This document shows positions 1,393 to 22,770 of a stretch of 32,000 bases of DNA, piece after piece. The position numbers and the translations under genes are program-made. The stretch covers positions 1,200,001 to 1,232,000 of the forward strand of contig NZ_CP013213.1 of NCBI RefSeq assembly GCF_001545095.1. Reading direction: 5' to 3'. Every line of letters begins with the position of its first letter. The first letter of the stretch is position 1. The notes under the pieces were generated by a model. It worked only from the letters and a program-made list of their open reading frames with translations. It did no database searches and was not told the origin of the DNA. Origin of the DNA: Erysipelothrix larvae (GTDB lineage Bacteria > Bacillota_I > Bacilli_A > Erysipelotrichales > Erysipelotrichaceae).

Positions 1393-1398
1393 GTGCCT

Positions 1399-3547: not shown

Positions 3548-3570
3548 TAATATTTCCTCCTCTAGATGCT

Positions 3571-3709: not shown

Positions 3710-3715
3710 TCCTAG

Positions 3716-7709: not shown

Positions 7710-7741
7710 GCGTTTCCCTCCTACAAATCATCCATACTTCA

Positions 7742-7750
7742 TGATATACT
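7742..7750 (+). promoter_or_regulatory. Extended -10 promoter element (TGaTATACT) placing the transcription start at or next to ATG 7757
   Basis: TG at 7742-7743 and TATACT at 7745-7750, then 6 nt (AACTCT), then ATG 7757. No SD is present. Confidence 0.4.
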
Positions 7751-7756
7751 AACTCT

Positions 7757-8581: not shown

Positions 8582-9474
8582 ATAACTATCATGTAACTCG
8601 CGCATTTGACGGCATGCGCCTTGATGCATTTTGTACTGAGCACTCCCCTTTATCACGATCAAAGATCACAGAAATGATTCAATCACATTTAATTTTACTG
8701 AATGATAAACCAACAAAACCAAAGTCTAAAGTTAAATTGGGTGATATCATTACAATCCATGACTATATCCCTAAGGAAACACGCATTAAATCAGTCTCGA
8801 TGGATTTAGATATAATTTATGAGGATCATCATTTACTCGTTGTAAATAAACCACGTGGCTTGATGGTTCATCCTGCTAAAGGCGTACCTACGTTAACATT
8901 ACTCAATGGTTTAGTCTACCATTTCAATCAACAAGGGTTATACCATACACCAGGTATTGTCCATCGTATCGACAAAGACACTGAAGGACTTTTAGTTATC
9001 GCAAAAGATTCAATTACACATAATGCACTCGCATCACAATTGCTCGATAAGACGTTGAATCGCCACTACATTGCAGTGTGTCATAACCAAGCATCATTTG
9101 ATGAAACTGACGTTAATGAACCCATTGGTGTCAATCCCATAGATCCAACAAAAATGGCAATTCACGGACTTCAATCAAAACATGCACTCACACATTTTAA
9201 GCTTATTGAAAATCATCCGACATACTGTGTATTAGAATGTATATTAGAAACAGGAAGAACCCATCAAATTCGCGTACATGCATCATTTATCAATCATCCA
9301 CTTGTTGGTGATAAAGTTTATGGCCCCGACAAACAAGCAAGTGGACAAGCCTTATGTGCTTATAAGATTGCTTTCATACATCCTATTTCAAAAAAACCGC
9401 TTGAGTTTTCAATATCTACAAAAAATACACTTCAATACGCTCTAGACATCATAGATCAACCATCAAAAAACTGA
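8578..9474 (+). CDS. rluD: RluA-family 23S rRNA pseudouridine synthase (RluD-like, with N-terminal S4 domain)
   Basis: ORF 8578..9474. Contains ..YEDHHLLVVNKPRGLMVHP.., ..GIVHRIDKDTEGLLV.. and ..GRTHQIRVH.. motifs. ATGA overlap with the kinase stop. Confidence 0.9.
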   Translation: MNNYHVTRAFDGMRLDAFCTEHSPLSRSKITEMIQSHLILLNDKPTKPKSKVKLGDIITIHDYIPKETRIKSVSMDLDIIYEDHHLLVVNKPRGLMVHPAKGVPTLTLLNGLVYHFNQQGLYHTPGIVHRIDKDTEGLLVIAKDSITHNALASQLLDKTLNRHYIAVCHNQASFDETDVNEPIGVNPIDPTKMAIHGLQSKHALTHFKLIENHPTYCVLECILETGRTHQIRVHASFINHPLVGDKVYGPDKQASGQALCAYKIAFIHPISKKPLEFSISTKNTLQYALDIIDQPSKN

Positions 9475-9556
9475 ACACGATTCAACAATGATTGTTATTT
9501 CACACTCAATTAAATGTGACACAATCAAACCGTTGGTTCTGTTCAGTTTTCTTTTT

Positions 9557-10237
9557 CTATATGATCAGCAATACGTTTGATATGATAATGACAAGTAGCA
9601 TCGCTGGTAAGAAATTCGCAATATCCAAATCAATCAATTTCATCATTTTAAAGCCAATCGCAATTGTAAAAACACCACCTACTGCCACAAAATTACTCAT
9701 GACAACCCCTTGTAAAGCGGGTTCAATGGTAAGTGATAACACTTTAATGAGTGTTAGAATAATTATTTGGAAGACACTGATAAAACCAATCGCATATCCT
9801 GCAATTGAAGCAAAGATAATTGCGGTAAAAAAATCTAAAATTGATTTTGATAATAGAATAGTGGAGTCACCAGTCAACCCTTCCAAAAACGCTCCTAAAA
9901 ATCCTGTGCCACTAAAGCAAAAAGTTACAAAACCAACGGTTAGCAGCTCCATTCCAACCTTTGATTTTAAATTAAAACGTTTCGCAAGCTTTGAGCACAA
10001 TGCATTAATTAATGCGCCAAGGCGTAACATTTCACCAATAATATATCCAGTAATAATGGATAAAACAACAACTGTGAGATTATCCATGAGGATTACTTTT
10101 GTAACGCCCATTACAATTGAACATAAGCCGAATACAACCGGCAAACTATCTTTAAGTTTACGACTGATACCGTCTTTAAAACGTGCACCACATAAGCCAC
10201 CGATTAGCACCGATAAGCTGTTAACAATAATTCCCAT
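9557..10237 (-). CDS. DUF554 family membrane protein (YqgA/YdfK-like)
   Basis: ORF 9557..10237. MGIIVNSLSVLIGGLCGARFK.. is the typical DUF554 N-terminus. SD AAGGAGAA. The 252-aa plus-strand ORF opposite it is a shadow. Confidence 0.8.
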   Translation of the reverse strand: MGIIVNSLSVLIGGLCGARFKDGISRKLKDSLPVVFGLCSIVMGVTKVILMDNLTVVVLSIITGYIIGEMLRLGALINALCSKLAKRFNLKSKVGMELLTVGFVTFCFSGTGFLGAFLEGLTGDSTILLSKSILDFFTAIIFASIAGYAIGFISVFQIIILTLIKVLSLTIEPALQGVVMSNFVAVGGVFTIAIGFKMMKLIDLDIANFLPAMLLVIIISNVLLII

Positions 10238-10251
10238 AATTTCTCCTTAAA

Positions 10252-10279
10252 CGTGATAAAGCGAACATCAAATGTTCGC
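10252..10279 (-). terminator. Hairpin / probable intrinsic terminator or attenuator between chbG and the DUF554 gene
   Basis: The minus strand reads GCGAACAT-TTG-ATGTTCGC (8 bp) followed by TTTATCACGTTT. It starts 1 nt after the chbG stop and ends a few nt before the DUF554 SD. Confidence 0.5.
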
Positions 10280-11017
10280 CTAATCAAAGATTACATCATC
10301 CCATTTTCCAAGGTCATACCCCGCTTGGTGATATGCTTCTTTAAACGCACTACTGTTTACCACTTCATAATCAACAACACGTTGATCTGTTAAACTAGTT
10401 AATGCTTCAAGTGCTTCATCAACATAACCAATATGACATGGCAATTCAATAATATCATCTGTTAACATTGACAAAAAGTCATAGTGATCAATCTCAAGAT
10501 AATTTTTAAGACTTTTCACCGGTTTAAATGGATAGTTTTGTTTAAAGCATTCACACCGCATTGGTTTGTTATATGATAGGATTTTCTCATACAGCATAGG
10601 ATATATACCATAGAAATCAATCATATGATGATAATTGATATGTACCGGATCCATCTTAGTTAAGTGTTTGAATTGTTCAATTTGTGCTACAAACTCAGTA
10701 ATTAACTCGTGTTCATTTACTGTATGATTAAGCCACCATTTAGAAGAATGGAATATACCATTTTCGTCAACAAGTGAAGGGATTTTCTCAATGGGTGAAA
10801 TTGGGGTTCCCAGGGTAACGTTGATGTGAACCCCTACTTCATTTAATCCAAATTGATTCATCAGTGATACTGCATGCTGTGTTTTATCAACATTAACCAT
10901 CAAACTGCATGACGATATTGAATTATTTTGAAACGAACTCAATATGGCTTCATTAATCCCTTCTGTGAGTCCGAAATCATCGGAATTTATAATCATTTTT
11001 TTTTGCATACAACACAT
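10280..11017 (-). CDS. chbG: ChbG/YdjC family carbohydrate (chitooligosaccharide) deacetylase
   Basis: ORF 10280..11017. ..MIINSDDFGLTEGINEAI..SSCSLMVN.. is the YdjC signature. The start is ambiguous (ATG at 11017, 11008 or 10996). Confidence 0.8.
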   Translation of the reverse strand: MCCMQKKMIINSDDFGLTEGINEAILSSFQNNSISSCSLMVNVDKTQHAVSLMNQFGLNEVGVHINVTLGTPISPIEKIPSLVDENGIFHSSKWWLNHTVNEHELITEFVAQIEQFKHLTKMDPVHINYHHMIDFYGIYPMLYEKILSYNKPMRCECFKQNYPFKPVKSLKNYLEIDHYDFLSMLTDDIIELPCHIGYVDEALEALTSLTDQRVVDYEVVNSSAFKEAYHQAGYDLGKWDDVIFD

Positions 11018-11037
11018 CCATTCTAAAAGGCATCAAT

Positions 11038-12282
11038 TTATTCTTGATCATTGCTCTCTTTTGCAAGTAATGTTTTATCATACATTTTGTAGAATGGTAA
11101 GAACATACATACTGCTAGTGGAATCGCAAGCGCTTGCCATATAGCTACCATCCAATTTCCTTGAACAAGTCCATATAAAATTACAGGAACCTGCATTGAT
11201 ACTTGAGCACCAGATAATGGTGTAACAATACCACTTACAAATCCAAAATAGAAGAATAAGTTTGTTACTACAGGAACTAGAATTACAGTTGGGATAAACA
11301 TATATGGATTCAATACATTTGGTACTCCAAATACAATGGGTTCACCAATGTTGAATAGTGCTGCTGGGGTTGCGATTTTCCCGATTTGTTTTAATTGCTT
11401 TGATTTGCAGAAGAATATCATTACAATACAACAAGCCAATGTCGATTGACCAACAACAGTCATAAGAGACATACCAATAGGATTGGTGGTTTCACCAGCT
11501 AAACGAGCCATATCAATTCCTAAGAATATCGGCATCATAACTGACATAACAACATTAAATCCATGGATTCCAAACCACCATAGTAATTGAATCAACACTG
11601 TTGCAATTAAATAACCCCATAGTGATCCTCCTAATGCATACAATGGTGTTTGTAGCATTTGAAATACAAACTCATGCACATTTCCATACGATGTTAAGCT
11701 AAAAATATAAGTAATAGCTGTAAATAGCACTACAGATACAAAGCCTGGTACAAGCGATGTAAATGATTGAGTTACAAAAGGCGGAACGCCTTCTGGCATC
11801 TTAATGGTCCAGCCGTTTTTTATAATAAACACTGATATTTTTGCAACAATAATTGCAGTGATTAAAGCCACAAAGATTCCTTTAGATGAAAGCCAGTCAA
11901 ATTGATAGCTCATAATTCCTTCTTCACTTGTGACAAATGGTGTAATGACTAAAAACGAAATCAATGCGATTACAGCAATTGAAAACCCTTCTCCTGAATC
12001 TTCACTATAAGCATATGCAATTGAGAATACTGTGTACAAAGCAAGAAGTCCAATTGACACATTATAAGCAATTAAAACATAAGCAGCTAACCCTGAACTT
12101 GCTAACCAATTTGTCCATGCAGGAATTGGAAAGTTTGCAATCAGGTAAAACATTGATCCAATCATTGTAACAGGCAGTATTCTCATAAATCCCCGTGAGA
12201 CTGCTTGTAAACTTTTATTACCTGCTATTTTCTCAGAAATAGGTAATAAAGTATTTTCTAACATTTGTGTTATTTTTTCCAT
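11038..12282 (-). CDS. PTS lactose/cellobiose-family EIIC permease
   Basis: ORF 11038..12282, 414 aa. N-terminus ..LLPISEKIAGNKSLQAVSRGFMRILPVTMIGS.. and about 10 TM segments, typical of CelB/ChbC EIIC. No EIIB or EIIA gene in the window. Confidence 0.9.
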   Translation of the reverse strand: MEKITQMLENTLLPISEKIAGNKSLQAVSRGFMRILPVTMIGSMFYLIANFPIPAWTNWLASSGLAAYVLIAYNVSIGLLALYTVFSIAYAYSEDSGEGFSIAVIALISFLVITPFVTSEEGIMSYQFDWLSSKGIFVALITAIIVAKISVFIIKNGWTIKMPEGVPPFVTQSFTSLVPGFVSVVLFTAITYIFSLTSYGNVHEFVFQMLQTPLYALGGSLWGYLIATVLIQLLWWFGIHGFNVVMSVMMPIFLGIDMARLAGETTNPIGMSLMTVVGQSTLACCIVMIFFCKSKQLKQIGKIATPAALFNIGEPIVFGVPNVLNPYMFIPTVILVPVVTNLFFYFGFVSGIVTPLSGAQVSMQVPVILYGLVQGNWMVAIWQALAIPLAVCMFLPFYKMYDKTLLAKESNDQE

Positions 12283-12309
12283 TATGGTATGCTTCTCCTT
12301 TTTTATACA

Positions 12310-13179
12310 TTAACGGTTAAAACAGCGTGCAATAAAATCATAAACCACTTCTAAATTATCAGGCTGTTCAAAGGCTATATCTCCATGATTTGCGTTTTCA
12401 AGTACCTGATATGTAATATGTCCTTGGGCAAATCCAAACGTATCTGTTGCTTTTACAAATCGCTCGGACTGCTTGTATGGAACAACACGATCTACTGATC
12501 CGTGTTGGATTAACATTGGTGGTAATGATTCGTTGATATAATTTATAGGATTTGATCTTGCTAATTTATCAGTACTTTTAAGAACTGGCTCGCCAAGAAA
12601 CAAAGATTCTGGTGAATTATCAGCACTATGGTCCGGACTTTTTTCTAAGAGTCCTAACTCTTTCAGATCGTGATCCATTAACTCAAATGAAATTGGTGGA
12701 AACCATGATACAATCCCCGATATTGATGGTCGTGTACTTGAAGAAAACGATTCATCAAAATATGGATCATCAGTTATGCATCCACTCATTAATGAGAAAT
12801 AGCCTCCTGCTGAACCACCCCAAACTACAATATTAGTCGGGTCAAAGTTATAATTATGTGCATTGTCATGAATAAAACGTAATGCCTGTTTTATATCTTT
12901 AAGCGGTTCTGGAAATTGGGCTTCACCACTTAGCCGATAATTCACACCAACTACTGCATATCCAAGATCTAATCCAAGTAGCATCGGTTCTATCATCTCT
13001 TTGTCTCGCTTGTCACATTTTTTAAATGCGCCACCATGAATCGATACAATAACAGGATATGGTTTATCATGTGATTGTGGTAGGTAAATATCAAGAAGAC
13101 AGGTTGGTGATGCCGTACTGTATTGGACATCAAACTTTCCGGTGTATGCGTTTACATCTAAACGATCTAATTTCCCCAT
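12310..13179 (-). CDS. Alpha/beta hydrolase fold-3 esterase (carboxylesterase/deacetylase-like)
   Basis: ORF 12310..13224 trimmed to ATG 13179..13177, preceded by AAAGGAGGAG. Contains ..VIVSIHGGAF.. (oxyanion HGG) and ..VVWGGSAGG.. (GxSxG). The track start at 13224 lies upstream of the predicted promoter -10. Confidence 0.85.
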   Translation of the reverse strand: MGKLDRLDVNAYTGKFDVQYSTASPTCLLDIYLPQSHDKPYPVIVSIHGGAFKKCDKRDKEMIEPMLLGLDLGYAVVGVNYRLSGEAQFPEPLKDIKQALRFIHDNAHNYNFDPTNIVVWGGSAGGYFSLMSGCITDDPYFDESFSSSTRPSISGIVSWFPPISFELMDHDLKELGLLEKSPDHSADNSPESLFLGEPVLKSTDKLARSNPINYINESLPPMLIQHGSVDRVVPYKQSERFVKATDTFGFAQGHITYQVLENANHGDIAFEQPDNLEVVYDFIARCFNR

Positions 13180-13202
13180 TTTTGCTCCTCCTTTATAAAC
13201 TG

Positions 13203-13231
13203 ATTGTAACGGAACATATTCCAATTGTCAA
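13203..13231 (-). promoter_or_regulatory. sigmaA-type promoter of the esterase-EIIC-chbG operon (TTGACA-N17-TACAAT)
   Basis: -35 TTGACA at 13231..13226, a 17-nt spacer, and -10 TACAAT at 13208..13203. About 25 nt upstream of the SD. Confidence 0.6.
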
Positions 13232-13255
13232 CAATAAAAACGGAATTCATTCCAT
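13208..13255. promoter_or_regulatory. Two copies of a 17-nt operator-like motif (AACGGAAnnnATTCCAw) at the esterase-EIIC promoter
   Basis: Plus strand: 13208-13224 AACGGAACATATTCCAA and 13239-13255 AACGGAATTCATTCCAT (13/17 identical). Each holds an internal GGAA..TTCC palindrome. The starts are 31 nt apart. One copy fills the -35/-10 spacer and the other sits just upstream of the -35. Confidence 0.4.
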
Positions 13256-13261
13256 TGTTCA

Positions 13262-13304
13262 TTAAAATAAAAGCTTATTATCACGTTTAATATGAATAAT
13301 AAGC
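13262..13304 (-). terminator. Intrinsic terminator after the RpiR gene
   Basis: The minus strand reads GCTTATTAT-(14 nt)-ATAATAAGC (9 bp) followed by TTTTATTTT. Confidence 0.7.
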
Positions 13305-13311
13305 CTATTTA

Positions 13312-14076
13312 TTAGCTTAAATATGACAGCAATACTTGTACAAACACAGAATAAATTGGAACGTTTTCCAAAAGTGAACTTTCATTTCCAGATGCGACGG
13401 ATGGTAAGGTGATCGCTAAATCTACTTTTTGTTTGATACTCGTTTGTGAATTCATTGTAATGAGTATTATTGGGGTTTTACACCCTTCAGCAAGACGCAT
13501 TGTTTCTTTTATAATGTTTGATTCAGGGTTTGCATTTGCAGAGATTAGTAAAATAACATCGGAATCATTTGTAGACAAATCAATTGAAACTACTTCAGAA
13601 GCAGCTGTTAAGACATCAACATTATAGCCATACATTGCAAGAGCATAGCGTAACTGATAACAAGTAACAGATGAGTTGATTTCCCCAATACAACGTATAA
13701 TCCGCGCACTTTTTATAAACTCGACAATTTGTCTCATGTCGTTATCATCAAGCCACATATGAAACTGGCTAATCGTGTCAATATATCGCTGACTTACGTT
13801 TGTGATGAGACGATTTTTTTCATCATTCTTTTCTTCAATATTCTTTAGTGAGTTTACATATTTGATGCACTCAAAACGAAACTCAGTATACCCACTGTAA
13901 CCAATTTTCTGGCAAAAACGTAAAATTGTAGTTTTAGAAACATTAATCTCTTCAGACATTTTTGTAAGAGAGAGTCTTTGAACGCGCATTAGATTATCTA
14001 GGATTCGTTCACAAGCTTTCATTTCATTTTTAGTAAAACTACTTTTTTTATTTTCAATGTTGGAGATAAATGTCAT
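13312..14076 (-). CDS. RpiR/MurR family transcriptional regulator (N-terminal HTH_6, C-terminal SIS domain)
   Basis: ORF 13312..14076. Contains ..LSLTKMSEEINVSKTTILRFCQKIGYSGYTEFRF.. (RpiR HTH) and a SIS-like C-terminal half. SD AAAGGAG. Confidence 0.9.
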   Translation of the reverse strand: MTFISNIENKKSSFTKNEMKACERILDNLMRVQRLSLTKMSEEINVSKTTILRFCQKIGYSGYTEFRFECIKYVNSLKNIEEKNDEKNRLITNVSQRYIDTISQFHMWLDDNDMRQIVEFIKSARIIRCIGEINSSVTCYQLRYALAMYGYNVDVLTAASEVVSIDLSTNDSDVILLISANANPESNIIKETMRLAEGCKTPIILITMNSQTSIKQKVDLAITLPSVASGNESSLLENVPIYSVFVQVLLSYLS

Positions 14077-14103
14077 GATGGCTCCTTTTGTTCTTTAGCT
14101 ATT

Positions 14104-14132
14104 ATTATAGCGTTTAAGACTATAAATCACAA
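14104..14132 (-). promoter_or_regulatory. sigmaA-type promoter in front of the RpiR gene (TTGTGA-N17-TATAAT)
   Basis: -35 at 14132..14127, a 17-nt spacer, and -10 TATAAT at 14109..14104, in the 82-nt gap after the MBL gene. Confidence 0.55.
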
Positions 14133-14158
14133 TCACGAAAACTGAAGTTCTATTGTTT

Positions 14159-14872
14159 TTATACTTCACGTACTTTACTTTTTGCACGTACTAATACCCT
14201 TTCAAGTTGTGGTTTTGGATTTTCAAGTACATCTCCATGACCACAGCATAAATAGTCAAAGTCATAGTTTAGTATTTTTTCTACAGTTTCAATACATTTT
14301 GATAATGACCAGGTTCCCATCGTAACAAACGGGAAAAGCCAACGTGTATCTCCAGCAACAGACAATCCGCCTTGAACTTGTACCAAATCACCGACAATAA
14401 GTACTTTATTTGATCGATCTAATAACGACAACGAACCGGGAGTATGACCCGGTGTCATAATTACTTCGAGTGAACCGATTTTATCACCCTCACTTACAAA
14501 ATGATTGGGTTTATGACTGGTTTTTACACTGCTTCCTTTTATCTTTGGGCCTGTTTCATTATCAAGTAAATCAAAGCACCCCTCTAGAAGATAATTATCG
14601 CGTTTGGTTATGAATGTATCGATTGGGTTTTGATTTGATGAACAAAAATAATCCAACCCAGCCACATGATCACGATGAGGATGTGTTAACACAAGTCGAG
14701 TTACCGGTTTGTTCAAATTTTTACTGAGTGACAAAACATGCTTGGTAAATCTTTTTGTCCCAATATCAATCAGTGTTAAGCTATCTTCTTCTTCATATAC
14801 ATAACAATTAATTGGAAAAAGATGGTTCATAAACGTAATCTGATAAAATGATGATTTTTTCAAAACTCTCAT
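14159..14872 (-). CDS. MBL-fold metallo-hydrolase
   Basis: ORF 14159..14872. Contains ..LVLTHPHRDHVAGL.. (HxHxDH), ..TPGHTPGS.. and ..CCGHGD.. SD TAAGGAGG. Confidence 0.85.
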   Translation of the reverse strand: MRVLKKSSFYQITFMNHLFPINCYVYEEEDSLTLIDIGTKRFTKHVLSLSKNLNKPVTRLVLTHPHRDHVAGLDYFCSSNQNPIDTFITKRDNYLLEGCFDLLDNETGPKIKGSSVKTSHKPNHFVSEGDKIGSLEVIMTPGHTPGSLSLLDRSNKVLIVGDLVQVQGGLSVAGDTRWLFPFVTMGTWSLSKCIETVEKILNYDFDYLCCGHGDVLENPKPQLERVLVRAKSKVREV

Positions 14873-14895
14873 AATTCCCCGCCTCCTTACATCCT

Positions 14896-14924
14896 ATTCT
14901 ACGGGTAGCGACTCGTATTGTCAA
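14896..14924 (-). promoter_or_regulatory. sigmaA-type promoter of the MBL hydrolase gene (TTGACA-N17-TAGAAT)
   Basis: -35 TTGACA at 14924..14919, a 17-nt spacer, and -10 TAGAAT at 14901..14896, immediately upstream of the SD. Confidence 0.55.
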
Positions 14925-15087
14925 AGAAATGAGAAATCATTCATTTTTGATGTGAATTTCACAAGAAAATTAGTGGGATTATTTCATCGTCATGATGGGT
15001 TTCGTGATTTATTTTGTGAATAATAACAGGATTACCTAAATTATCGAATTATGGAAAAATTTTATAGGAATTCTAGGTAATTTAGGA

Positions 15088-15116
15088 TTGTAAAAAAGGG
15101 AGTCAGCTTATATAAT
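15088..15116 (+). promoter_or_regulatory. Candidate sigmaA promoter of the riboswitch-ABC-deaminase operon (TTGTAA-N17-TATAAT)
   Basis: -35 at 15088-15093, a 17-nt spacer, and -10 TATAAT at 15111-15116. This gives a ~250-nt leader. A weaker alternative is TTGACA 15173-15178, N18, TG-extended GTAAAT 15197-15202. Confidence 0.5.
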
Positions 15117-15243
15117 TGAACAGTTACACGACGTCTAGGGGCGAAACGTGATGTAACCGAACCAATATCGATTTGACAAATTATCCGCTACTATGGGTAA
15201 ATGTGTCATTTGGATATTAATTTTACGATTAATAGATTATTGA

Positions 15244-15312
15244 TTTTTATCATATATGCATTCAATTGGGAATGTGTTTCTACCTGGAACCGTAAATTCC
15301 AGACTATGATAG
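15244..15312 (+). promoter_or_regulatory. Purine riboswitch aptamer, guanine/hypoxanthine class (C at the discriminator position)
   Basis: ..TCATATATGCATTCAATTGGGAATGTGTTTCTACCTGGAACCGTAAATTCCAGACTATGATAG. It contains the invariant GTTTCTACC, CCGTAAA and GACTATG blocks. P1, P2 and P3 helices can be drawn by hand. C 15304 corresponds to C74. Confidence 0.85.
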
Positions 15313-15325
15313 AAAGTTCTTTTTG

Positions 15326-15358
15326 GCTTTCTTTCATTTGATTGAAAGCTTTTTTATT
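15326..15358 (+). terminator. Riboswitch expression-platform intrinsic terminator
   Basis: GCTTTC (15326-15331) pairs with GAAAGC (15344-15349) and is followed directly by TTTTTTATTT. Its 5' arm can instead pair with the 3' half of P1 plus AGAAAG (15307-15316), giving an antiterminator. Confidence 0.7.
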
Positions 15359-15376
15359 TAGATTTAGGAGGAAAGA

Positions 15377-16210
15377 ATGAAGAAAAGCATCTATACAACT
15401 CTTGTATTACCATGCTTTATTTTGGTTACAGTTGTACTAATTGTACCCATTGTAATGATTGTAATCCCTTCTTTCACAGAAGGAGGATTATCACTCACTC
15501 ATTATATTACGTTTTTGAGTGATCCATTTTACCAAGGAATTTTATGGAGAACACTCAAGCTCTCTGTGATCACAACGCTTATCTGTGCATTATTTGGAAT
15601 ACCTACTGCCTATTTCATTTCAATCCAAAAGAAATCGGTAAAAAGTTTACTTCAGGCGCTTGTCATGTTTCCCCTTCTTACAAACGCTGTAGTGCGTGGA
15701 TTCGCGTGGATGAATGTTTTAGGAAGAAATGGATTAATCAATAAATTCTTAATGAGTTTATCTCTGATCGAAGAACCCCTTTCTCTGATGTATACTGAGC
15801 TTGCAATTGTGGTTGGTTCTGTCTATCTGTTTTTACCACTTATGATTACAACGTTAACATCGGTAATGGAGAACATTGACAGCGATCTTGTGAATGCGAC
15901 CTTGAGTTTAGGTGCAAAACCATATCAAGTCTTCTTTAAAGTGATTATTCCATTATGTTTCTCAGGCATCTTAGTTGGTAGTGTTCTTGTATTTACTGGA
16001 ACATTGAGCGCGTATACAACCCCTTCATTATTAGGGGGTAATCAAAATATGATGCTCGCTACTTTGTTATACCAACAAGCGAACCAATTATCCAATTGGA
16101 CGAATGCCGGGATGATTTCACTCATCATGATTGTCTTATCATTAACAGTAATGAAAGGTATGAATCGACTCAGCAAACGGCTTGATAAGCGAGGTTATGA
16201 ACATGCGTAA
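15377..16210 (+). CDS. ABC transporter permease (PotB-like, binding-protein-dependent transport family)
   Basis: ORF 15377..16210, about 6 TM. EAA-type loop ..NIDSDLVNATLSLGAKPYQVFFKVIIP.. SD AGGAGG. Confidence 0.9.
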   Translation: MKKSIYTTLVLPCFILVTVVLIVPIVMIVIPSFTEGGLSLTHYITFLSDPFYQGILWRTLKLSVITTLICALFGIPTAYFISIQKKSVKSLLQALVMFPLLTNAVVRGFAWMNVLGRNGLINKFLMSLSLIEEPLSLMYTELAIVVGSVYLFLPLMITTLTSVMENIDSDLVNATLSLGAKPYQVFFKVIIPLCFSGILVGSVLVFTGTLSAYTTPSLLGGNQNMMLATLLYQQANQLSNWTNAGMISLIMIVLSLTVMKGMNRLSKRLDKRGYEHA

Positions 16211-16982
16211 AAACGTAGGAATAAACAGTATCGCACTCATCACTCTTTTATTTATTGGACTTCCTTTAATTATGATTGCAACTACAGCATTTGGAGAAGC
16301 TGCTGTTATTCAGTTTCCAATTCAAGGATTTACTTTTAAATGGTTTGGAGATGTACTAAATACCCGAAGCTTGATGACAAGTTTATGGACTAGTGTTCGC
16401 CTTGCAGTCATCGCATCGATGATTGGTTTGATGATTGGCTTACCAACAAGTTATGCCCTCACTAAAAATAACTCTAAGATGAGTCAGCGCCTCTTGTCAT
16501 TCTTTCTATCACCAAACTTAGTACCTGGCATTGTGATGGGGTTTGCACTATTTAAAACATTAACCCTCACCTTTAGATTAACTGTATGGACATCGTTGAT
16601 CTTAGGCCATCTCATGATTGTTTTGCCCTATACCATACGCATACTTGCAGCAAGCATGCGTGAACTTGATCCAAGCATTGAAGAAGCAGCACGCAGTTTA
16701 GGATGTAAACCAGTAGAAACGTTCATCCGGGTGGTGATTCCCAATCTAAAAGGATCTATCTTTGCAGCACTCATTATGTCATTTATCAATTCATTTAATA
16801 ACTTACCCGTATCTTTATTCTTAAAGGGACCGGGCGTAAATACATTACCTGCTGCATTAATGAATCATTTGGAGTATAACTTCAACCCTACAGTAAGTGC
16901 TTTATCGGTAATTCTAATGGTGATTACCTTTGTGATGATGTTACTTATTGAAAAAACAATCGGCTTATCGGAGGTGCGTTAG
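16203..16982 (+). CDS. ABC transporter permease (PotC-like)
   Basis: ORF 16182..16982 trimmed to ATG 16203 (MRKNVGINS..), which overlaps the upstream stop by 8 nt. EAA loop ..ELDPSIEEAARSLGCKPVETFIRVVIP.. Confidence 0.9.
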   Translation: MRKNVGINSIALITLLFIGLPLIMIATTAFGEAAVIQFPIQGFTFKWFGDVLNTRSLMTSLWTSVRLAVIASMIGLMIGLPTSYALTKNNSKMSQRLLSFFLSPNLVPGIVMGFALFKTLTLTFRLTVWTSLILGHLMIVLPYTIRILAASMRELDPSIEEAARSLGCKPVETFIRVVIPNLKGSIFAALIMSFINSFNNLPVSLFLKGPGVNTLPAALMNHLEYNFNPTVSALSVILMVITFVMMLLIEKTIGLSEVR

Positions 16983-17969
16983 ATGATAAAAGGTCAATTA
17001 AAAAATATCAGTGTCAGTTACAACAAGAAGGATTTAATCTTAAAGTCATTAAATCTTGACATCCATGAAGGAGAACTCTTATCACTTTTAGGCCCTTCGG
17101 GTTGTGGCAAATCTACAACCTTACGCACAATTGCTGGATTTCTAGATGTTGTAGATGGCAGTTTTATACTTGATGGTGACGATTACACACGCAAACATAT
17201 TCATGATCGAGATTTTGGTATTGTATTTCAAAGTTACGCATTGTTCCCCCACCTTAATGTTTTTGACAATGTTGCATTTGGACTTAAACTTCGAAAAATG
17301 GACAAGAAAACCATTCTGGAGAAGGTATCCCGGATGCTTGAAATCTGTAATCTAACTGGATATGAGAACCGTGTGCCTCAACAACTTTCAGGTGGGCAAC
17401 GTCAACGTGTTGCACTTGCCAGAGCTTTAGTGATTGAACCCAAACTCTTATTGTTGGATGAGCCTTTGAGTAATCTTGATGCACAGCTACGTATTCAGAT
17501 GCGTAATGAAATTAAACGAATTCAACGTGAACTCAATATCACGACAATATTCGTAACTCATGATCAAGAGGAATGCTTTGCGATTAGCGATCGAGTTGCA
17601 GTTATGAAAGATGGGATTATTGAACAACTCGATTGTCCTGAAACTATCTATGCACAACCTAAAACGGAATATGTTGCTCGATTTGTGGGTTTTGAAAATT
17701 TCATTGATCCCATGAAATTGCCATATGATACACAAAACCACCCCAATACCCTAGCATGTATTCGCCCCGATGATATTAAAGTCACTCAAACAGGTTGGCT
17801 AAAAGCTGAAGTGATGAGTCATGAATACTTAGGGAATCGTTATCAACTTGTTTTAAATACTGAACTTGGAATGCTTAAATGCATCCACACTCAACGTATT
17901 GAGGAAGCAAGCTCAATACTTATTGATTTACCAGAGCATAAAATATGCTATGTACAGGAGGAAAAATGA
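16983..17969 (+). CDS. ABC transporter ATP-binding protein (PotA/CysA-like)
   Basis: ORF 16983..17969. Walker A GPSGCGKST, signature LSGGQRQRVA, Walker B LLLLDEP and H-loop VTHD. Confidence 0.9.
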   Translation: MIKGQLKNISVSYNKKDLILKSLNLDIHEGELLSLLGPSGCGKSTTLRTIAGFLDVVDGSFILDGDDYTRKHIHDRDFGIVFQSYALFPHLNVFDNVAFGLKLRKMDKKTILEKVSRMLEICNLTGYENRVPQQLSGGQRQRVALARALVIEPKLLLLDEPLSNLDAQLRIQMRNEIKRIQRELNITTIFVTHDQEECFAISDRVAVMKDGIIEQLDCPETIYAQPKTEYVARFVGFENFIDPMKLPYDTQNHPNTLACIRPDDIKVTQTGWLKAEVMSHEYLGNRYQLVLNTELGMLKCIHTQRIEEASSILIDLPEHKICYVQEEK

Positions 17970-19012
17970 AAAAATTAGGATTAGGACTTATCGCTTCTTT
18001 AGTGCTTTTAAGCGGATGTAGTACTGGAAATAAAGATTCAGAAACGCGAGAACTTGTTATCTCAACATGGGGTTTAAGCGAAGACGTCTTAATGGAAGAT
18101 GTGTATGGGCCTTTTGAAGAGGCATTCAATGTAAAAATTGTATTAGATACAGGGACTACATCTGAACGCTATACAAAGCTCGCAAATGATTCAAATTCGA
18201 CAGTTGATATTATTGATTTATCGCAAAAAGCAGCAGCAGATGGTTATGAAGCTGGATTGTTTGAAAAACTTGACTACAGTAAAATACCAAATGCTCAAGA
18301 TTTAATTCCAAGCGCAAAATCACTTACAGAAACTGGTTTTGGACCTGCTTATACAATCAATAGTATTGGAATTATTTACAACCCTGAAACTGTATCAATT
18401 GACATCAAAGAGTGGTCAGATTTATGGGACCCTTCACTAAAAGGCCGCATCTCTATTCCTGACATCTCTACAACATTTGGTCCAGCTACAATCGTGATGG
18501 CTAGTGATGTGAAAGGCGTGGATATTAAGAGTGATAACGGTGCTGCTGCTTTTAGCGCATTAGAAGCACTAAAACCGAACGTATTGAAAACATATTCAAA
18601 ATCAAGTGACCTTGCAATGATGTTTGCAAATGGTGAAATTGATGTCGCAATTGTCGGTGATTTTGGATTCCCAGTTATAAAGAATGCTTTAGACACAGTT
18701 AAGTACATCGTTCCTGCTTCTGGAACTTATGCAAATTTCAACACTGTTGATATCAACGTGAACTCAAAGAATAAAGATTTAGCGTATGAGTTTATTAACT
18801 TCAGACTCAGTGTTCAACAACAACTTCAAAATGCTTCAGCACAAACCTTAAACGAAGCACCGGTAAATTCAAACGTTGAATTGTCTGATGAAGATGCCCA
18901 AAACAAAACATATGGTGACATTGCAAATCGTGCAAAGGCACTCGATTACAGCTTTATTAATCCATTAATGTCCGAATGGATTGACCAATATAACCGTATT
19001 ATGAACCAATAA
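17966..19012 (+). CDS. PotD/PotF-family extracellular solute-binding lipoprotein; ligand uncertain
   Basis: ORF 17945..19012 trimmed to ATG 17966 after AGGAGG (ATGA overlap with the ATPase stop). Lipoprotein signal MKKLGLGLIASLVLLSGC (lipobox LSGC). Confidence 0.9.
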   Translation: MKKLGLGLIASLVLLSGCSTGNKDSETRELVISTWGLSEDVLMEDVYGPFEEAFNVKIVLDTGTTSERYTKLANDSNSTVDIIDLSQKAAADGYEAGLFEKLDYSKIPNAQDLIPSAKSLTETGFGPAYTINSIGIIYNPETVSIDIKEWSDLWDPSLKGRISIPDISTTFGPATIVMASDVKGVDIKSDNGAAAFSALEALKPNVLKTYSKSSDLAMMFANGEIDVAIVGDFGFPVIKNALDTVKYIVPASGTYANFNTVDINVNSKNKDLAYEFINFRLSVQQQLQNASAQTLNEAPVNSNVELSDEDAQNKTYGDIANRAKALDYSFINPLMSEWIDQYNRIMNQ

Positions 19013-20676
19013 TGATTACACGTTTTACCAACATTAACGTTTTTAATACATCGCAACGGCAGTTTGAACTGCTTGATGTATATATTAAAGACACTATATT
19101 TTATTACATAGGGAATGACATCATTCCCTATGATGCTCTTGTAGATGGACAGGGTCGTTATATGATACCAGGTCTTATCGATTCCCACATGCACATCGAA
19201 AGTTCCATGACGACGCCACAAGAGTTCTCTAACACTGTGTTACCTTTAGGAACGACAACAATTCTCGCAGATGCTCATGAAGTGGGTAATGTTTTTGGCT
19301 ATGATGGTTTAGTCGAATACATGAACCAGACGCAACGACTGGATGTGTTTTATGCCATCCCCTCTTCAGTTCCTTCCACAAATCCGTCACTGGAAACAAC
19401 CGGTGGTTATGTAGATGAAACAATTGTATCAAAACTTGCATTGCATCCTAAAGTGATAGCTTTAGGTGAAATCATGAATTTTAAAGATCTTACTTCCGAT
19501 GAAGATACACTTACGAAACGTATTGTATCTACCTTTAAAGAGGTAAAACCGAATCATCCAATTGAAGGACATATTCCACGCATTTCAGGACTGGGTCTAT
19601 CAAAATTCATTATGCAAGGGATTGGTTCAGATCATACACAACAAACCCCACAATCACTGTTAGAGAAAACACGCAATGGTTTAATTATTCAGCTTCAAGA
19701 AAAATCATTGAATCGTGCATTGGTTGAGACCATCATTGACTATGATTTATTCAATTTTGTTTCGCTTGTCACAGATGATGTCATGCCTGATGACCTTCTT
19801 AATAAAGGTCACCTTAATCATCTGATAAAAAAATGCATTTCATATGGTATGAAACCTGTGGATGCGATATACATTGCAACCCACACACCAGCACAACGCA
19901 TCCAACGCTTTGATCGTGGTATGATTGCTCCAGGGAAAATAGCAGACGCTGTGATACTGGAGTCACTCGAACACTTTGAAATTTATGATGTCCTTAAATC
20001 TGGGAAATCAGTCAATCAACTTTCCAAAGATCCGATACCCTCGTTTCATGAAGCTTCATTAAATTCAATCAAACGCGCTCCCCTATCTTACGAAGATTTT
20101 GTTGTTACATCATCTAAAGCAGTTGAGACAGTGCGTATCATGTCTCGTGAAATGGGATCTACCTTTACACAAGAAAAGCATATTCAAGTCCCAGTAAAAG
20201 ACGGTTTATTATCATGGAAAGAGTGTGGATTGAACCTTATATGTGTCATTGAACGCTATGGACACAATGCACCACTCAAATTTGGATTTGTTGAAAATGG
20301 CTTTGATAAACCTTGTGCTCTGGCAACATCGTGGGCACATGATCATCACAACATCCTCGTTATGGGCAATGATATTCAAAAAATTGTAGACGCCGTAAAT
20401 ACTATCATTGTGAATCAAGGTGGAATCATTTGCATCAACGATGAATCAGTCTTCGCTCCTTTAAGTTATGGCGGGATTGTATCATTAGAACCAATGGATG
20501 TACTCGCAACTAAAATCGAAAAAATTCGAGATATGATGGCAAAATCAGGATATATCAGTCATAATGAAATCATGAGTTTCTGTGTTCTATCCTTGCTTGT
20601 ATCACCAGAAATTAAAATTAGCGATAAAGGATATGTAAACACGACAACCCAAGAAATTCTAGATTGGAGTGTATAA
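19012..20676 (+). CDS. ade: Adenine deaminase (amidohydrolase superfamily)
   Basis: ORF 19012..20676, 554 aa. ..YMIPGLIDSHMHIESSM.. and the overall length match adenine deaminase (AdeC/Ade). The start overlaps the SBP stop (TAATG). Confidence 0.9.
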   Translation: MITRFTNINVFNTSQRQFELLDVYIKDTIFYYIGNDIIPYDALVDGQGRYMIPGLIDSHMHIESSMTTPQEFSNTVLPLGTTTILADAHEVGNVFGYDGLVEYMNQTQRLDVFYAIPSSVPSTNPSLETTGGYVDETIVSKLALHPKVIALGEIMNFKDLTSDEDTLTKRIVSTFKEVKPNHPIEGHIPRISGLGLSKFIMQGIGSDHTQQTPQSLLEKTRNGLIIQLQEKSLNRALVETIIDYDLFNFVSLVTDDVMPDDLLNKGHLNHLIKKCISYGMKPVDAIYIATHTPAQRIQRFDRGMIAPGKIADAVILESLEHFEIYDVLKSGKSVNQLSKDPIPSFHEASLNSIKRAPLSYEDFVVTSSKAVETVRIMSREMGSTFTQEKHIQVPVKDGLLSWKECGLNLICVIERYGHNAPLKFGFVENGFDKPCALATSWAHDHHNILVMGNDIQKIVDAVNTIIVNQGGIICINDESVFAPLSYGGIVSLEPMDVLATKIEKIRDMMAKSGYISHNEIMSFCVLSLLVSPEIKISDKGYVNTTTQEILDWSV

Positions 20677-21974
20677 TGAAAACCTTTATAAATACAACGA
20701 TTGTGACATTGGATCGGTTTGATACCATTATTAAGCACGGATATATTCGAATTAATTCTGACCAAATTATCGAAATGGGACCCATGGATCAATGGGTTCC
20801 CATCGTCGATGAAACGGTTCATGACATGAATAATACGATTGTTATGCCTGGGCTGATCAATGCACACACCCATTTGGGATTAATTCCCCTTCGATCACTC
20901 AAAGATGATATGCCCGATCGTCTTCGATTGTTCCTATTCCCGATGGAACAGAAATATATGAGTGAGCAAACAGTTCGTGACGCATCACTTTATGGAGCGC
21001 TTGAATCCTTATTAAACGGTACGACGACACTGTGTGATATGTATTACTATTCAAATTCAGTGTGTGAAGTTTTAGATGAAGTGGGTGTCCGTGCATTTGT
21101 GGGACAGACTATTGTTAAGGATTCTCAAATTGATTATCAAACACAAGAGGCTGCCCTCAATCAGACAAAAGCACTCATTCGTAAGTGGCGTCAACATCCA
21201 TTAATTACACCGATGATTGCGCCTCACGGTACAACAACCCTTAGTGAGGAAATCCTAATTAAAATCCATGATTTATCAAAACAAACAGATACAAAAGTTA
21301 TGATGCATGTCTCAGAAATGGATTATGAAATGCGCGCATTTCTCCCTATGTCACCCATTGAATATTTAAATTCAATAAACATGCTTGATGATAACTTTAT
21401 CGCAGTTCATGTGATTCATACAAATAACAAAGACATTAAATTACTCGCGCAAACAAACACGAGTGTCGTAAGTTGCCCTGCAGCTAATATGAAAGCAGGC
21501 AAAGGGATCGTTGATGTTAAATCAATGATTGAGCACGGTATATGTGTTGGTCTTGGTACAGATGGTCCGATTAGTGGCAATACACTGGATCTTATGAGTA
21601 CCATGCGTCTTACAGGGTATGCTCAAAAAACAAATAATCATGATCGTGCTCTATTATCCAGTAAAGAACTATTAAAAATGGCGACAATAAATAGTGCTCA
21701 ACTTTTGGGCATCGATCATTTAGTTGGATCACTTGAAATTAATAAAAAAGCGGACCTTTTATTTGTTGATACGACACAATCAAATATGTTTCCAATCCAT
21801 GATGTTGAAGCAACACTTGTCTATCAATTCCAACCTCAAAACGTCCATACAGTGATTGTAAATGGTGTAATACAAGTCAGTAATCATAAACTTGTTAATT
21901 ATGACCTTAATGCGATAAAAAAGAGAATCATGCCTGTACTCGAACAGATTGCATCCCATACAAAGAACATTTAA
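20676..21974 (+). CDS. Amidohydrolase of the COG0402 / TRZ-ATZ family, MtaD-like (5'-methylthioadenosine / S-adenosylhomocysteine / adenosine-type deaminase)
   Basis: ORF 20664..21974 (TTG) trimmed to ATG 20676 after GGAG (TAATG overlap). Contains ..MPGLINAHTHLGL..LKDDMP..LFPMEQ.., ..HVSE.. and ..GLGTDGPISGNTLD.. motifs. Exact substrate not determinable by eye. Confidence 0.85.
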   Translation: MKTFINTTIVTLDRFDTIIKHGYIRINSDQIIEMGPMDQWVPIVDETVHDMNNTIVMPGLINAHTHLGLIPLRSLKDDMPDRLRLFLFPMEQKYMSEQTVRDASLYGALESLLNGTTTLCDMYYYSNSVCEVLDEVGVRAFVGQTIVKDSQIDYQTQEAALNQTKALIRKWRQHPLITPMIAPHGTTTLSEEILIKIHDLSKQTDTKVMMHVSEMDYEMRAFLPMSPIEYLNSINMLDDNFIAVHVIHTNNKDIKLLAQTNTSVVSCPAANMKAGKGIVDVKSMIEHGICVGLGTDGPISGNTLDLMSTMRLTGYAQKTNNHDRALLSSKELLKMATINSAQLLGIDHLVGSLEINKKADLLFVDTTQSNMFPIHDVEATLVYQFQPQNVHTVIVNGVIQVSNHKLVNYDLNAIKKRIMPVLEQIASHTKNI

Positions 21975-22000
21975 AGCACACTAATCTGTGCTTTTTCTTT
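21975..22000 (+). terminator. Intrinsic terminator of the ABC-deaminase operon
   Basis: AGCACA-CTAATC-TGTGCT followed by TTTTTCTTT, starting 1 nt after the stop. Confidence 0.8.
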
Positions 22001-22286
22001 ACGTATATTGAACACTTCTTATCATCGTGATGAGTGCAATTGACAAATAAACCCATTACACGTCTCAAAAGAATGATTGAACTAACGATTTGGATTGAGT
22101 TCAGTTTTATATGTGTTTCTTTTTTGTGTTATTGAAATTGCTAAAATCCGTATCTAAACCTTCTAAAGATTGGCTTTCACCAATCCATGATCTTAAATCA
22201 AAAAATCAATGTTAATGTTCATGAATCATTTTGTACGTGTGCATCTTAGAAGTAAAAGTTTGTCGTATACGATACAAAATGGGTTG

Positions 22287-22435
22287 AAAAAAACACTCAA
22301 TTATCGAGTGTTTTATCAAGGAGAATATTACATATCATCAAGAGCTACTCTCAGGTATTTGGCACCTACCTACAGAAATCTCAATGGATATATAATATCG
22401 AGAACACTTATAAAGTGTCTTCATATGGCAATAAC
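22287..22435 (-). ncRNA. Candidate ~150-nt small RNA (unassigned family)
   Basis: Bounded by a near-consensus promoter (22442-22470) and a hairpin ACACTC-N7-GAGTGT plus a U7 terminator (22311..22287). Internal 10-bp hairpin at about 22398-22420. UUCUCCUU lies just 5' of the terminator. The only ORF is 28 codons without an SD. Confidence 0.35.
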
Positions 22436-22441
22436 AAAATG

Positions 22442-22470
22442 ATTATACAACAACTTGAAAACGTTTACAA
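22442..22470 (-). promoter_or_regulatory. sigmaA-type promoter (TTGTAA-N17-TATAAT) of the candidate sRNA
   Basis: -35 at 22470..22465, a 17-nt spacer, and -10 TATAAT at 22447..22442. No protein gene lies downstream on this strand. Confidence 0.5.
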
Positions 22471-22643
22471 TATTGTTCATAATTTCACACAGTTTTCACG
22501 CTTTCCGTTTTCATCACACGAATCAATCATTGATTAAAAACCAAAGCGTATCCCTTTTCAAATAGTTGTATTATGTAGTGTGTCATAAGAATCAGCTTGT
22601 GTTGATTCATCGTTATTTTTTGTGGTTATTTTCTATTTTCTAC

Positions 22644-22672
22644 TTGAAATAATCACAGTAATGAGCTATTAT
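22644..22672 (+). promoter_or_regulatory. sigmaA-type promoter of tRNA-Leu (TTGAAA-N17-TATTAT)
   Basis: -35 at 22644-22649 and -10 at 22667-22672, 11 nt upstream of the mature tRNA 5' end. Confidence 0.5.
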
Positions 22673-22683
22673 ATTATAGCAAT

Positions 22684-22770
22684 GCCCAAGTGGTGAAATC
22701 GGTAGACGCACTGGACTCAAAATCCAGCGAGGTAAAACTCATGACGGTTCGAGTCCGTCCTTGGGCACCA
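22684..22770 (+). tRNA. tRNA-Leu (anticodon CAA), type II with long variable arm, CCA encoded
   Basis: GCCCAAG..CTTGGGC acceptor stem. Anticodon arm CTGGA-CTCAAAA-TCCAG. T-arm GGTTCGAGTCC. Ends in ACCA. 87 nt. Confidence 0.95.

Follow-up and report, generated by a model that had tools for sequence, protein, structure and literature searches.

The stretch of DNA analysed here (32,000 nucleotides of Erysipelothrix larvae, contig NZ_CP013213.1, positions 1,200,001 to 1,232,000, hereafter called the window and numbered from its first letter) carries a six-gene operon in which the four components of an ATP-binding cassette (ABC) importer are followed by two amidohydrolase genes and preceded by a guanine-class riboswitch. 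This operon would serve the scavenging of purines and would be silenced by an ample supply of guanine or hypoxanthine, the compound taken up being likely an adenine-type or modified purine; we give this reading a probability of about 0.6. Comparison with loci of other hosts that carry the same genes (hereafter the cassette) shows a predicted membership of the purine regulon, with apparently repeated recruitment to two mechanistically unrelated purine sensors, and this recruitment is the strongest argument that the cassette relieves a limitation for purines, particularly for guanine nucleotides. No description of the function of the cassette was found in the searchable literature and, as far as that literature shows, the regulated cassette is undescribed.

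Orthologous loci were collected by a scan of one genome per species, which gave 20 loci (identity of the substrate-binding protein, SBP, 45-64%) from Erysipelotrichaceae (Massilimicrobiota, Thomasclavelia), Clostridia, Cellulosilyticaceae, Romboutsia, Clostridium, Tissierella and a spirochaete metagenome-assembled genome. Using tblastn with the six window proteins, the same gene order was found at all 20 loci, the gene for the COG0402 amidohydrolase being present in every one and the gene for the amidohydrolase resembling adenine deaminase (Ade-like) in 11. Searches started from distant amidohydrolase or SBP matches led again to the full six-gene cassette, with unrelated flanking genes, in Enterococcus, Vagococcus, Peptoniphilaceae, Sedimentibacter, Bacillus sp. 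FJAT-27251, Treponema and Carnobacterium. The order permease-permease-ATPase-SBP-(Ade-like)-COG0402 is thus that of all 27 inspected cassettes of Bacillota and spirochaetes, Peptostreptococcaceae included; the Ade-like gene is present in 18 of them and missing from nine. The conserved core consists of the importer and the COG0402 enzyme, and the Ade-like gene is dispensable. An earlier reading of the window, made from its letters and open reading frames (ORFs) and called here the sequence-only reading, had tied the importer to two deaminases and had proposed a survey of synteny; the survey upholds the COG0402 partner (27/27), but the second deaminase is a partner in two thirds of the cassettes only. 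The SBP has at least 1000 homologues at E < 1e-20. In the Treponema sp. locus (L090), permease 1 (5314-6131) and the COG0402 gene (10762-12098) are each called as two ORFs, possibly as the result of a frameshift, of pseudogenisation or of an assembly error.

Matches to the Rfam purine riboswitch model RF00167 precede the cassette in Erysipelotrichaceae-type loci other than the window (L002, L005-L007, L009 and L021), in a Peptoniphilaceae locus (L086, 68.8 bits) and in a Bacillus sp. locus (L089, 80.2 bits). Every cassette-linked match has a C at the specificity position. Guanine-type riboswitches are found in the Erysipelotrichaceae-type loci (among them the window), in Peptoniphilaceae and in Bacillaceae, which makes three separate groups. 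The other sensor is PurR, which binds PurBox pairs; such a pair consists of two AT-rich boxes of 14 bp in inverted orientation, with CGAA/TTCG at their centre, separated by a spacer of 16-17 bp and adjacent to the promoter (PMC8789054). The strict search pattern derived from this spacer, CGAA-N26/27-TTCG, was matched in L004, L015, L017, L019, L089 and L091, at 60-170 nt on the 5' side of permease 1, and each of these pairs is the sole strict match in its locus of 7-17 kb. Enrichment was computed on 16 riboswitch-less loci, L089 and L091 being left out: four strict matches were found in 2,029 nt of promoter-proximal sequence vs none in 210,707 nt of background, and when up to one mismatch was allowed, 11 matches were found where 0.395 were expected (Poisson P = 6e-13), distributed over 8 of the 16 loci. 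The purine-scavenging system put forward in the sequence-only reading is thus strongly favoured by the conservation of the cassette, by its predicted riboswitches in three groups and by its PurR boxes elsewhere.

Other upstream arrangements were also observed. In L089, which carries both a riboswitch and a PurBox pair, the riboswitch and its terminator (4829 to ~5010) are followed by the strict PurBox pair at 5112, by a promoter-like TTGTCA...TATAAT and by permease 1 at 5231; this unusual order of elements could be that of tandem promoters, of a PurR roadblock or of an orphaned riboswitch. Single PurBox-like half-sites (AAACACGAAC) take the place of a canonical inverted pair 5' of the cassette in Enterococcus (L084, 1957-2234) and Sedimentibacter (L087, 2037-2488), with two half-sites of the same orientation about 90 nt apart in the former, and resemble the single-PurBox arrangement of Lactococcus PurR. 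In the Tissierella locus (L020; 255-962 and 6432-8081), a LacI-family gene ends 17 nt 5' of permease 1 and a PucR-family gene is located downstream; this locus has neither riboswitch nor PurBox pair and may represent a third mode of regulation. A PurBox-like candidate of the window itself (Table 1), with one mismatch and GC-rich flanks, is weak and not significant by itself; it was rejected as evidence because about 0.18 such one-mismatch matches are expected per 400 nt (an estimate from base composition).

In the window, a covariance-model scan against Rfam (cmscan) gave an RF00167 match at 15230-15326 on the + strand, over the full length of the model, with 69.7 bits (gathering score of the family, 37 bits) and E = 1.6e-10. 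The nucleotide equivalent to C74, which sets specificity, is C15304, where the adenine class has U74; the equivalents of the ligand contacts U22, U47 and U51 are present as U15255, U15277 and U15281, and J3/1 is AC. The identities at U22, U47, U51 and C74 are diagnostic of guanine-I aptamers (PMC9295807). The sole deviation of the window aptamer is J1/2, which is UAU and not UAA and which is common to the nearest (Massilimicrobiota-type) leaders. The minimum free energy (MFE) structure of 15240-15358 (119 nt), at -29.5 kcal/mol (z = -4.2), combines the aptamer with a hairpin and U-tract located downstream; in 200 shuffles of this leader, no fold of equal energy was obtained. A de novo consensus fold of eight cassette-linked aptamers recovered the three-way junction, with compensatory changes in 17 of 22 pairs and with junction nucleotides that are invariant across the set.

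The expression platform was examined by refolding the leader with the 5' strand of P1 blocked, which gave an antiterminator that sequesters the 5' arm of the terminator, GGCUUUC. Positions 15306-15312 are common to this antiterminator and to the 3' strand of P1 and can belong to only one of them at a time, which predicts a classical OFF design. In related leaders, the 3' strand of P1, GATAGA(C/T), duplicates the 3' arm of the terminator (GATAGAC-T7) and both compete for GTCTATC; the predicted competition between P1, antiterminator and terminator is thus kept in relatives despite another sequence. Alignment and folding together show the leader to be a canonical guanine-class riboswitch with a predicted OFF terminator platform, and the riboswitch itself is ordinary, adding one more member to a class that is very well known. 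The sequence-only reading had folded this aptamer by hand and suggested an RF00167 search: the search is significant at the score given above, its alignment returns the same P1 (inner six pairs), P2, J2/3 and P3, and C15304, named there as the guanine-specifying position, is indeed placed at the C74 equivalent. The antiterminator pairing which it had drawn between 15307-15316 and 15327-15336 was recovered by the constrained fold in the same register and extended, and the competing folds agree with the OFF logic, by which P1 would free the terminator. The probable promoter (15210-15238) aligns with TTAGACA-N17-TACAAT of related riboswitch leaders and scores under the threshold of a consensus scan.

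The six genes follow each other with overlapping or abutting reading frames. The ATG at 16203 overlaps the stop at 16210, the ATG at 16983 abuts the stop at 16982, the ATG at 17966 (SBP gene, with an AGGAGG ribosome-binding site and a lipobox LLSG/C) overlaps the TGA at 17969, and those at 19012 and 20676 share one nucleotide each with the TAA of the gene before. The hairpin at 21973-21994 is the only strong + strand terminator 3' of the genes. A consensus scan for promoters internal to the operon gave 34 matches vs 33.7 expected from shuffles; as these matches are at chance level, there is no evidence for sub-operons. Gene junctions and signals together show six genes, predicted to be translationally coupled, in a single operon (15377-21974), as the sequence-only reading had described it with the same junctions and one terminator; the importer is not fused to the deaminases, as the title of that reading had it, the genes being separate and only co-transcribed. 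Two BPD_transp_1 permeases, an ATPase and a lipoprotein SBP in one operon correspond to a type-I ABC importer. The COG0402 amidohydrolase of the window is identical to E. larvae AOC36_05665, which is annotated as "hypothetical protein", and the SBP is annotated by NCBI as [quoted passage not shown].

Taken at its word, the latter annotation would make the operon a genuine spermidine/putrescine PotABCD system that is co-transcribed with unrelated hydrolases. The name given to the SBP in GenBank/NCBI speaks for it, as do the NCBIfam models that the permeases and the SBP match best, which are those of Pot proteins, but every score is far under the equivalog cut-offs: the SBP reaches 55.2 bits against PotD (cut-off 582) and 49.4 bits against PotF (cut-off 636). 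Its Pfam match is PF13416 (SBP_bac_8, 102 bits), and it has the cluster-D periplasmic binding-protein fold. The binding pocket was compared in an alignment that joins PotD and PotF of E. coli to 21 members of the cassette SBP family, a comparison which the sequence-only reading had proposed. The identities and numbering of the PotD contact residues were checked on the E. coli PotD sequence; the residues of the window SBP are numbered from a start at 17945. The residues most critical for spermidine (E171, W255 and D257) are replaced across the 21 aligned members: E171 by Ala, invariant bar one Ser (window A181), and both W255 and D257 by invariant Asn (window N264 and N266), within the invariant family motif Y-x-N-F-N. 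D168 is replaced by Ile (window I174), W229 by Gly, Ala or Ser (window G238) and Y293 by Glu or Asp (window E304), and Y85 corresponds to K95 of the window. W34 is kept, and E36 is replaced by Asp, which is still acidic. The PotABCD label is misleading because of these scores and of the loss of the key polyamine contacts, as the sequence-only reading had anticipated. Since a deaminase gene is linked at 27 of 27 loci and the regulation is purine-specific, we regard polyamine transport as hardly credible.

The AlphaFold2 model of the SBP (predicted local distance difference test score 90.6) was compared with known structures using Foldseek. PotD and PotF structures gave TM-scores of 0.6-0.74, and PDB 4EDP gave a TM-score of 0.97 with a root-mean-square deviation of 1.1 Å, at a sequence identity of 56-58%. 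This entry is an orphan SBP of Clostridium perfringens ATCC 13124, deposited by structural genomics in 2012 as "ABC transporter"; as a crystal structure of an orthologue thus exists, the question of the ligand is directly testable. The next neighbours in fold share about 20% identity with it, and their ligands are polyamines, Fe3+, opines, gamma-aminobutyric acid, pyridoxal phosphate or aminoethylphosphonate, a diversity which makes the fold uninformative about the ligand. A planar heterocycle that forms hydrogen bonds could well be accommodated by one aromatic residue and several side chains of Asn, Asp and Glu. Variation at the pocket positions showed no correlation with the presence of the Ade-like gene and tracks lineage.

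For the COG0402 protein, the top relatives of solved structure are PA3170 (deaminase of 5'-methylthioadenosine, MTA, and adenosine; 206 bits), Cv1032 (deaminase of MTA and S-adenosylhomocysteine, SAH) and Tm0936; solved relatives score from 206 down to 132 bits at about 30% identity. All equivalogs are missed: PRK09045 with 322 bits vs 540, PRK07228 (5'-deoxyadenosine deaminase) with 255 vs 522, PRK15493 (MTA/SAH deaminase) with 201 vs 779 and TIGR02967 (guanine deaminase) with 161 vs 375. The sequence of Tm0936, checked to be 100% identical to that of 1P1M, was aligned with 27 family members. Its residues H55, H57, H173, H200, E203, H228 and D279 are invariant in 27 of 27. R136 is replaced by Glu or Gln (window Gln144) and R148 by Gly, Ala or Ser (window Ala160), and W75 is replaced by an invariant Arg (window Arg82), D-R-L standing in place of [T/D/E]-W-L; Trp75 is kept in all five solved relatives shown, including PA3170, Cv1032, OLEI01672 and Xcc2270. 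Hermann and colleagues reportedly found in 2007 that Arg136 and Arg148 of Tm0936 clamp the homocysteine carboxylate and that Trp75 is a substrate contact. Because the two Arg are lost and Trp75 has become an invariant Arg, neither MTA nor SAH is a safe guess. The sequence-only reading, which called the enzyme an MtaD-like deaminase, is therefore sustained for the metal and catalytic residues but not for the SAH clamp or for Trp75. Glu84 of Tm0936 was tried as a marker of base vs nucleoside substrates (ribose binding) and rejected, since it is invariant in the family; the Glu of this "FPxE" motif is probably general in COG0402. Hitchcock and colleagues (JACS, 2013) reportedly assayed many Tm0936 homologues and sorted them into substrate subgroups; their assays may cover a cassette enzyme, for example that of C. 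perfringens.

The Ade-like protein is 25% identical to E. coli AdeD and consists of the Pfam domains Amidohydro_1 and Adenine_deam_C. It scores 339.2 bits against TIGR01178 (cut-off 472.5) and 244 bits against PRK10027 (cut-off 768). The ligands of the binuclear centre of the E. coli enzyme (H90, H92, E185, H214, H235 and D284) are invariant in 16 cassette proteins, and the auxiliary pairs H120/E121 and H473/D474 are kept. The residue equivalent to E. coli Glu236, which follows the second beta-metal His, is an invariant Thr (window T209, motif DHTQQ). In a survey of clusters at 50% identity, the nearest representatives, about 33 in number, were all without this Glu ("DH[T/C..]"), and the remainder of the Ade family had "DHE" in 90 of 140; the "DHT" clade of the cassette is therefore, on alignment, separate from the "DHE" majority. 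The adenine deaminase named in the sequence-only reading thus keeps its architecture and metal ligands, but it stays under the TIGR01178 cut-off, has Thr in place of Glu236 and is not a true Ade. Both cassette enzymes look like catalytically competent hydrolytic deaminases of uncharacterised clades.

These substitutions bear on the choice of substrate. The same regulation could serve the salvage or detoxification of modified purines, a different class of substrates, which includes N6-methyladenine and N6-methyladenosine, O6-methylguanine, N2-methylated guanines, 2,6-diaminopurine and oxidised adenines; these would come from the turnover of nucleic acids, and the hypoxanthine, guanine or xanthine made from them would then be salvaged. 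Both enzymes differ from enzymes for plain substrates at active-site positions, and two hydrolases per cassette fit a family of related substituted substrates. There is also a growing set of amidohydrolases that prefer alkylated nucleobases, such as 6-methyladenine, cytokinin and 5-methylcytosine deaminases and an N2,N2-dimethylguanine hydrolase (PMC13054789, PMC8643624). In two loci of Massilimicrobiota, the stop codon of the amidohydrolase gene coincides with, or closely follows, the start of another ORF (11068-11532 in L006, an O6-methylguanine-DNA methyltransferase, and 11022-11519 in L021, likewise placed), and a PF08713 DNA-alkylation-repair gene (11571-12293) lies 266 nt 3' of the cassette in Clostridium sp. 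L019. These links to repair genes concern, however, two lineages among some 15 independent contexts and may be due to chance, and the Ade-like clade is unlike the 6-methyladenine deaminase YerA, which keeps the Glu (E232) and in which it is listed as a metal ligand (PMC8643624). As a rival to the preferred reading, this explanation is rather unlikely.

Nitrogen catabolism, in which imported purines would be degraded by adenine and guanine deaminases with release of ammonia, was considered for the same pair of enzymes. One subgroup of Tm0936 homologues is said to deaminate guanine (Hitchcock and colleagues, JACS, 2013), and the PucR-family regulator gene 3' of the Tissierella cassette would fit, but repression by guanine through the predicted OFF switch is the opposite of catabolic logic, PurR boxes mark genes for purine limitation, the score against the guanine deaminase model is less than half its cut-off, and no xanthine dehydrogenase, allantoinase or other catabolic gene is linked at the loci examined; we hold this explanation to be quite improbable. 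About the same must be said of a heterocyclic amine other than a purine (a pterin, a pyrimidine or a triazine-like compound) whose use is merely co-regulated with purine status: the chemical diversity of COG0402 enzymes and of the PotD-fold SBP cluster is very large and neither enzyme attains an equivalog cut-off, but three groups use a guanine sensor and others PurR, and the closest characterised relatives of the enzymes are deaminases of the adenine/adenosine type, so that such a substrate is improbable.

Under the preferred reading, purine scavenging, the parts of the operon would work as follows. When guanine is abundant, ligand-stabilised P1 would withhold 15306-15312 from the antiterminator, the terminator would form and transcription would end ahead of the genes; with little guanine present, formation of the antiterminator would allow the six coupled genes to be expressed. 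The ABC importer, whose SBP pocket appears uncharged and rich in Asn, would take up an exogenous compound of the 6-aminopurine type, candidates being adenine itself, one of its nucleosides or a closely related derivative. The COG0402 metallo-deaminase, joined by the Ade-like enzyme in two thirds of the cassettes, would then remove by hydrolysis the exocyclic amino group, or a substituted one; for both enzymes, the nearest characterised relatives have substrates of the adenine or adenosine type. The 6-oxopurine produced (of the hypoxanthine, inosine or guanine type) would be converted to inosine or guanosine monophosphate (IMP, GMP) by housekeeping phosphoribosyltransferases and phosphorylases. 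In other Bacillota, the cassette would be tied to the same signal by PurR and phosphoribosyl pyrophosphate (PRPP) through the PurBox, instead of or beside the riboswitch. This scheme follows the known physiology of B. subtilis, in which adenine compounds must be deaminated to hypoxanthine or inosine before they can supply the pool of guanine nucleotides, and in which a guanine riboswitch and, under purine sufficiency, PurR with PRPP repress the salvage genes.

Several points weigh against this reading. No recognisable purine element was found by the RF00167 and PurBox scans in L003, L011, L018, L020 and L090. Adenine, adenosine, MTA and SAH in their plain form may not be the substrates of the enzymes, since in both of them residues of importance to characterised relatives are invariantly replaced. 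The sequence of the SBP does not discriminate between a base and a nucleoside as its ligand. The structure 4EDP does not settle the specificity, because its title names no ligand or function and no paper mentioning it was found. Lastly, in Clostridium sp. UBA4108 (L017) a 509-aa duplicated ATPase and two BPD_transp_2 permeases (450-4012) stand directly 5' of the cassette, an architecture that suggests a nucleoside importer of the Bmp type; such a neighbour makes it slightly less likely that the cassette takes up ordinary nucleosides. The PurBox pair of this locus lies between the two ABC systems, which together form a small purine-uptake island.

Table 1. Features of the riboswitch-controlled operon and its leader in the window
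Feature	Position	Strand	Details
PurBox-like candidate	15142-15175	.	CGAA-N26-ATCG, one mismatch, 5' of promoter region
Probable promoter	-35 15210-15215; -10 15233-15238	+	TTGGAT, 17-nt spacer, TAGATT; leader alignment
Guanine-class purine riboswitch aptamer	15247-15312	+	RF00167 (69.7 bits), MFE fold, covariation
Aptamer P1	15247-15254 / 15305-15312	+	RF00167 alignment
Aptamer P2	15258-15263 / 15270-15275	+	GCAUUC / GAAUGU; RF00167 alignment
Aptamer J2/3	15276-15283	+	GUUUCUAC; RF00167 alignment
Aptamer P3	15284-15289 / 15297-15302	+	CUGGAA / UUCCAG, loop CCGUAAA; RF00167 alignment
Antiterminator (predicted)	15306-15318 : 15325-15337	+	12 pairs, one U·U mismatch; constrained fold
Expression-platform intrinsic terminator (predicted)	15325-15355	+	Stem GGCUUUC / GAAAGCU, then U6
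ABC permease 1	15377-16210	+	BPD_transp_1; PotB/PotH-like, under equivalog cut-offs
ABC permease 2	16203-16982	+	BPD_transp_1; PotC-like, under cut-off
ABC ATPase	16983-17969	+	C-terminal TOBE_2 domain
Lipoprotein SBP	17966-19012	+	Signal MKKLGLGLIASLVLLSG/C; PotD fold, non-polyamine pocket
Ade-like binuclear amidohydrolase, "DHT" clade	19012-20676	+	Amidohydro_1 + Adenine_deam_C
COG0402 deaminase-type amidohydrolase	20676-21974	+	HxH, HxxE, His, Asp kept
Operon terminator	21973-22000 (hairpin 21973-21994)	+	AAAGCACA...UGUGCUUU, U-rich tail

The surroundings of the operon were compared with an assembly resembling E. larvae (L001, Logan SRR6161627). In this assembly, positions 9414-14173 of the window (4.76 kb) are replaced by about 146 nt, the sequence being otherwise 99.8-99.98% identical over 5331-9413 and 14174-22761. 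The variable segment encodes DUF554, YdjC, a phosphotransferase system EIIC component, a BD-FAE esterase and an RpiR regulator, and looks like a strain-variable sugar-utilisation island directly 5' of the gene that neighbours the riboswitch operon. A tRNA-Leu (CAA) gene is located at 22684-22770, 0.7 kb 3' of the operon terminator (Rfam 56.3 bits; also found by ARAGORN). A gene for a Ham1p-like protein (ITPase-type, a pyrophosphatase of non-canonical purine nucleoside triphosphates) is located at 7113-7709 on the - strand, 8 kb 5' of the operon; its Pfam assignment was taken from the gene table of L001, and it is probably an unrelated housekeeping gene.

The riboswitches and PurR boxes act as a functional label, by which a large family of SBPs and enzymes can be assigned to purine acquisition. 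If this is confirmed, a systematic misannotation ("spermidine/putrescine transporter", "adenine deaminase", "amidohydrolase"/"hypothetical protein") would be corrected, and a new type of transporter for purine salvage would be recognised together with two uncharacterised deaminase subfamilies with distinctive active sites. Among the hosts are commensals of the gut and pathogens (Clostridium perfringens, Enterococcus, Turicibacter, Erysipelothrix, Treponema) whose fitness is determined in part by the scavenging of purines. We know of no characterised PotD-fold SBP with a purine ligand. It is a tentative proposal, more doubtful than purine scavenging as such, that the cassette contains the first ABC importer with a PotD-fold SBP for a purine-type compound, together with two new hydrolase specificities ("DHT" and Arg-for-Trp). 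If so, the cassette would represent a widespread route of "modified purine salvage" under control of the purine regulon, in Bacillota and some spirochaetes, that converts an unrecognised environmental purine derivative (e.g. methylated or alkylated purines or modified adenine, derived from nucleic-acid turnover in gut-like habitats) to guanine or hypoxanthine.

Among known systems, the closest in regulation are the B. subtilis units xpt-pbuX, pbuG and nupG, which have, like the window, a guanine-I aptamer (U22, U47, U51, C74) with an OFF platform and which serve, as the cassette would, the acquisition of purines when guanine nucleotides are short. Their cargo is a secondary permease or a phosphoribosyltransferase, whereas that of the cassette is a four-component ABC importer with two amidohydrolases. 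Dual control by riboswitch and PurR, as the elements of L089 suggest, is found for xpt-pbuX and pbuG (PMC8789054). E. coli PotABCD and PotFGHI share with the cassette the type-I ABC organisation, with two BPD_transp_1 permeases, a TOBE ATPase and a cluster-D SBP, but the SBPs are about 20% identical and regulation and gene partners differ. The Bmp/PnrA-type importers, which are ABC systems for purine compounds in Gram-positives and spirochaetes, have a Bmp SBP (PF02608), BPD_transp_2 permeases and a duplicated ATPase, and the fold of the cassette SBP is unrelated to theirs. As for the enzymes, Tm0936, PA3170 and Cv1032 have the same metal and catalytic set as the COG0402 protein (HxH, His, HxxE, His, Asp), but Tm0936, unlike the cassette enzyme, has the Arg136/Arg148 clamp and Trp75. 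AdeD of E. coli, Atu4426 of A. tumefaciens and YerA/Bsu06560 of B. subtilis (COG1001) share the two-domain architecture of the Ade-like protein; Ade and YerA keep the Glu at the position where the cassette protein has Thr.

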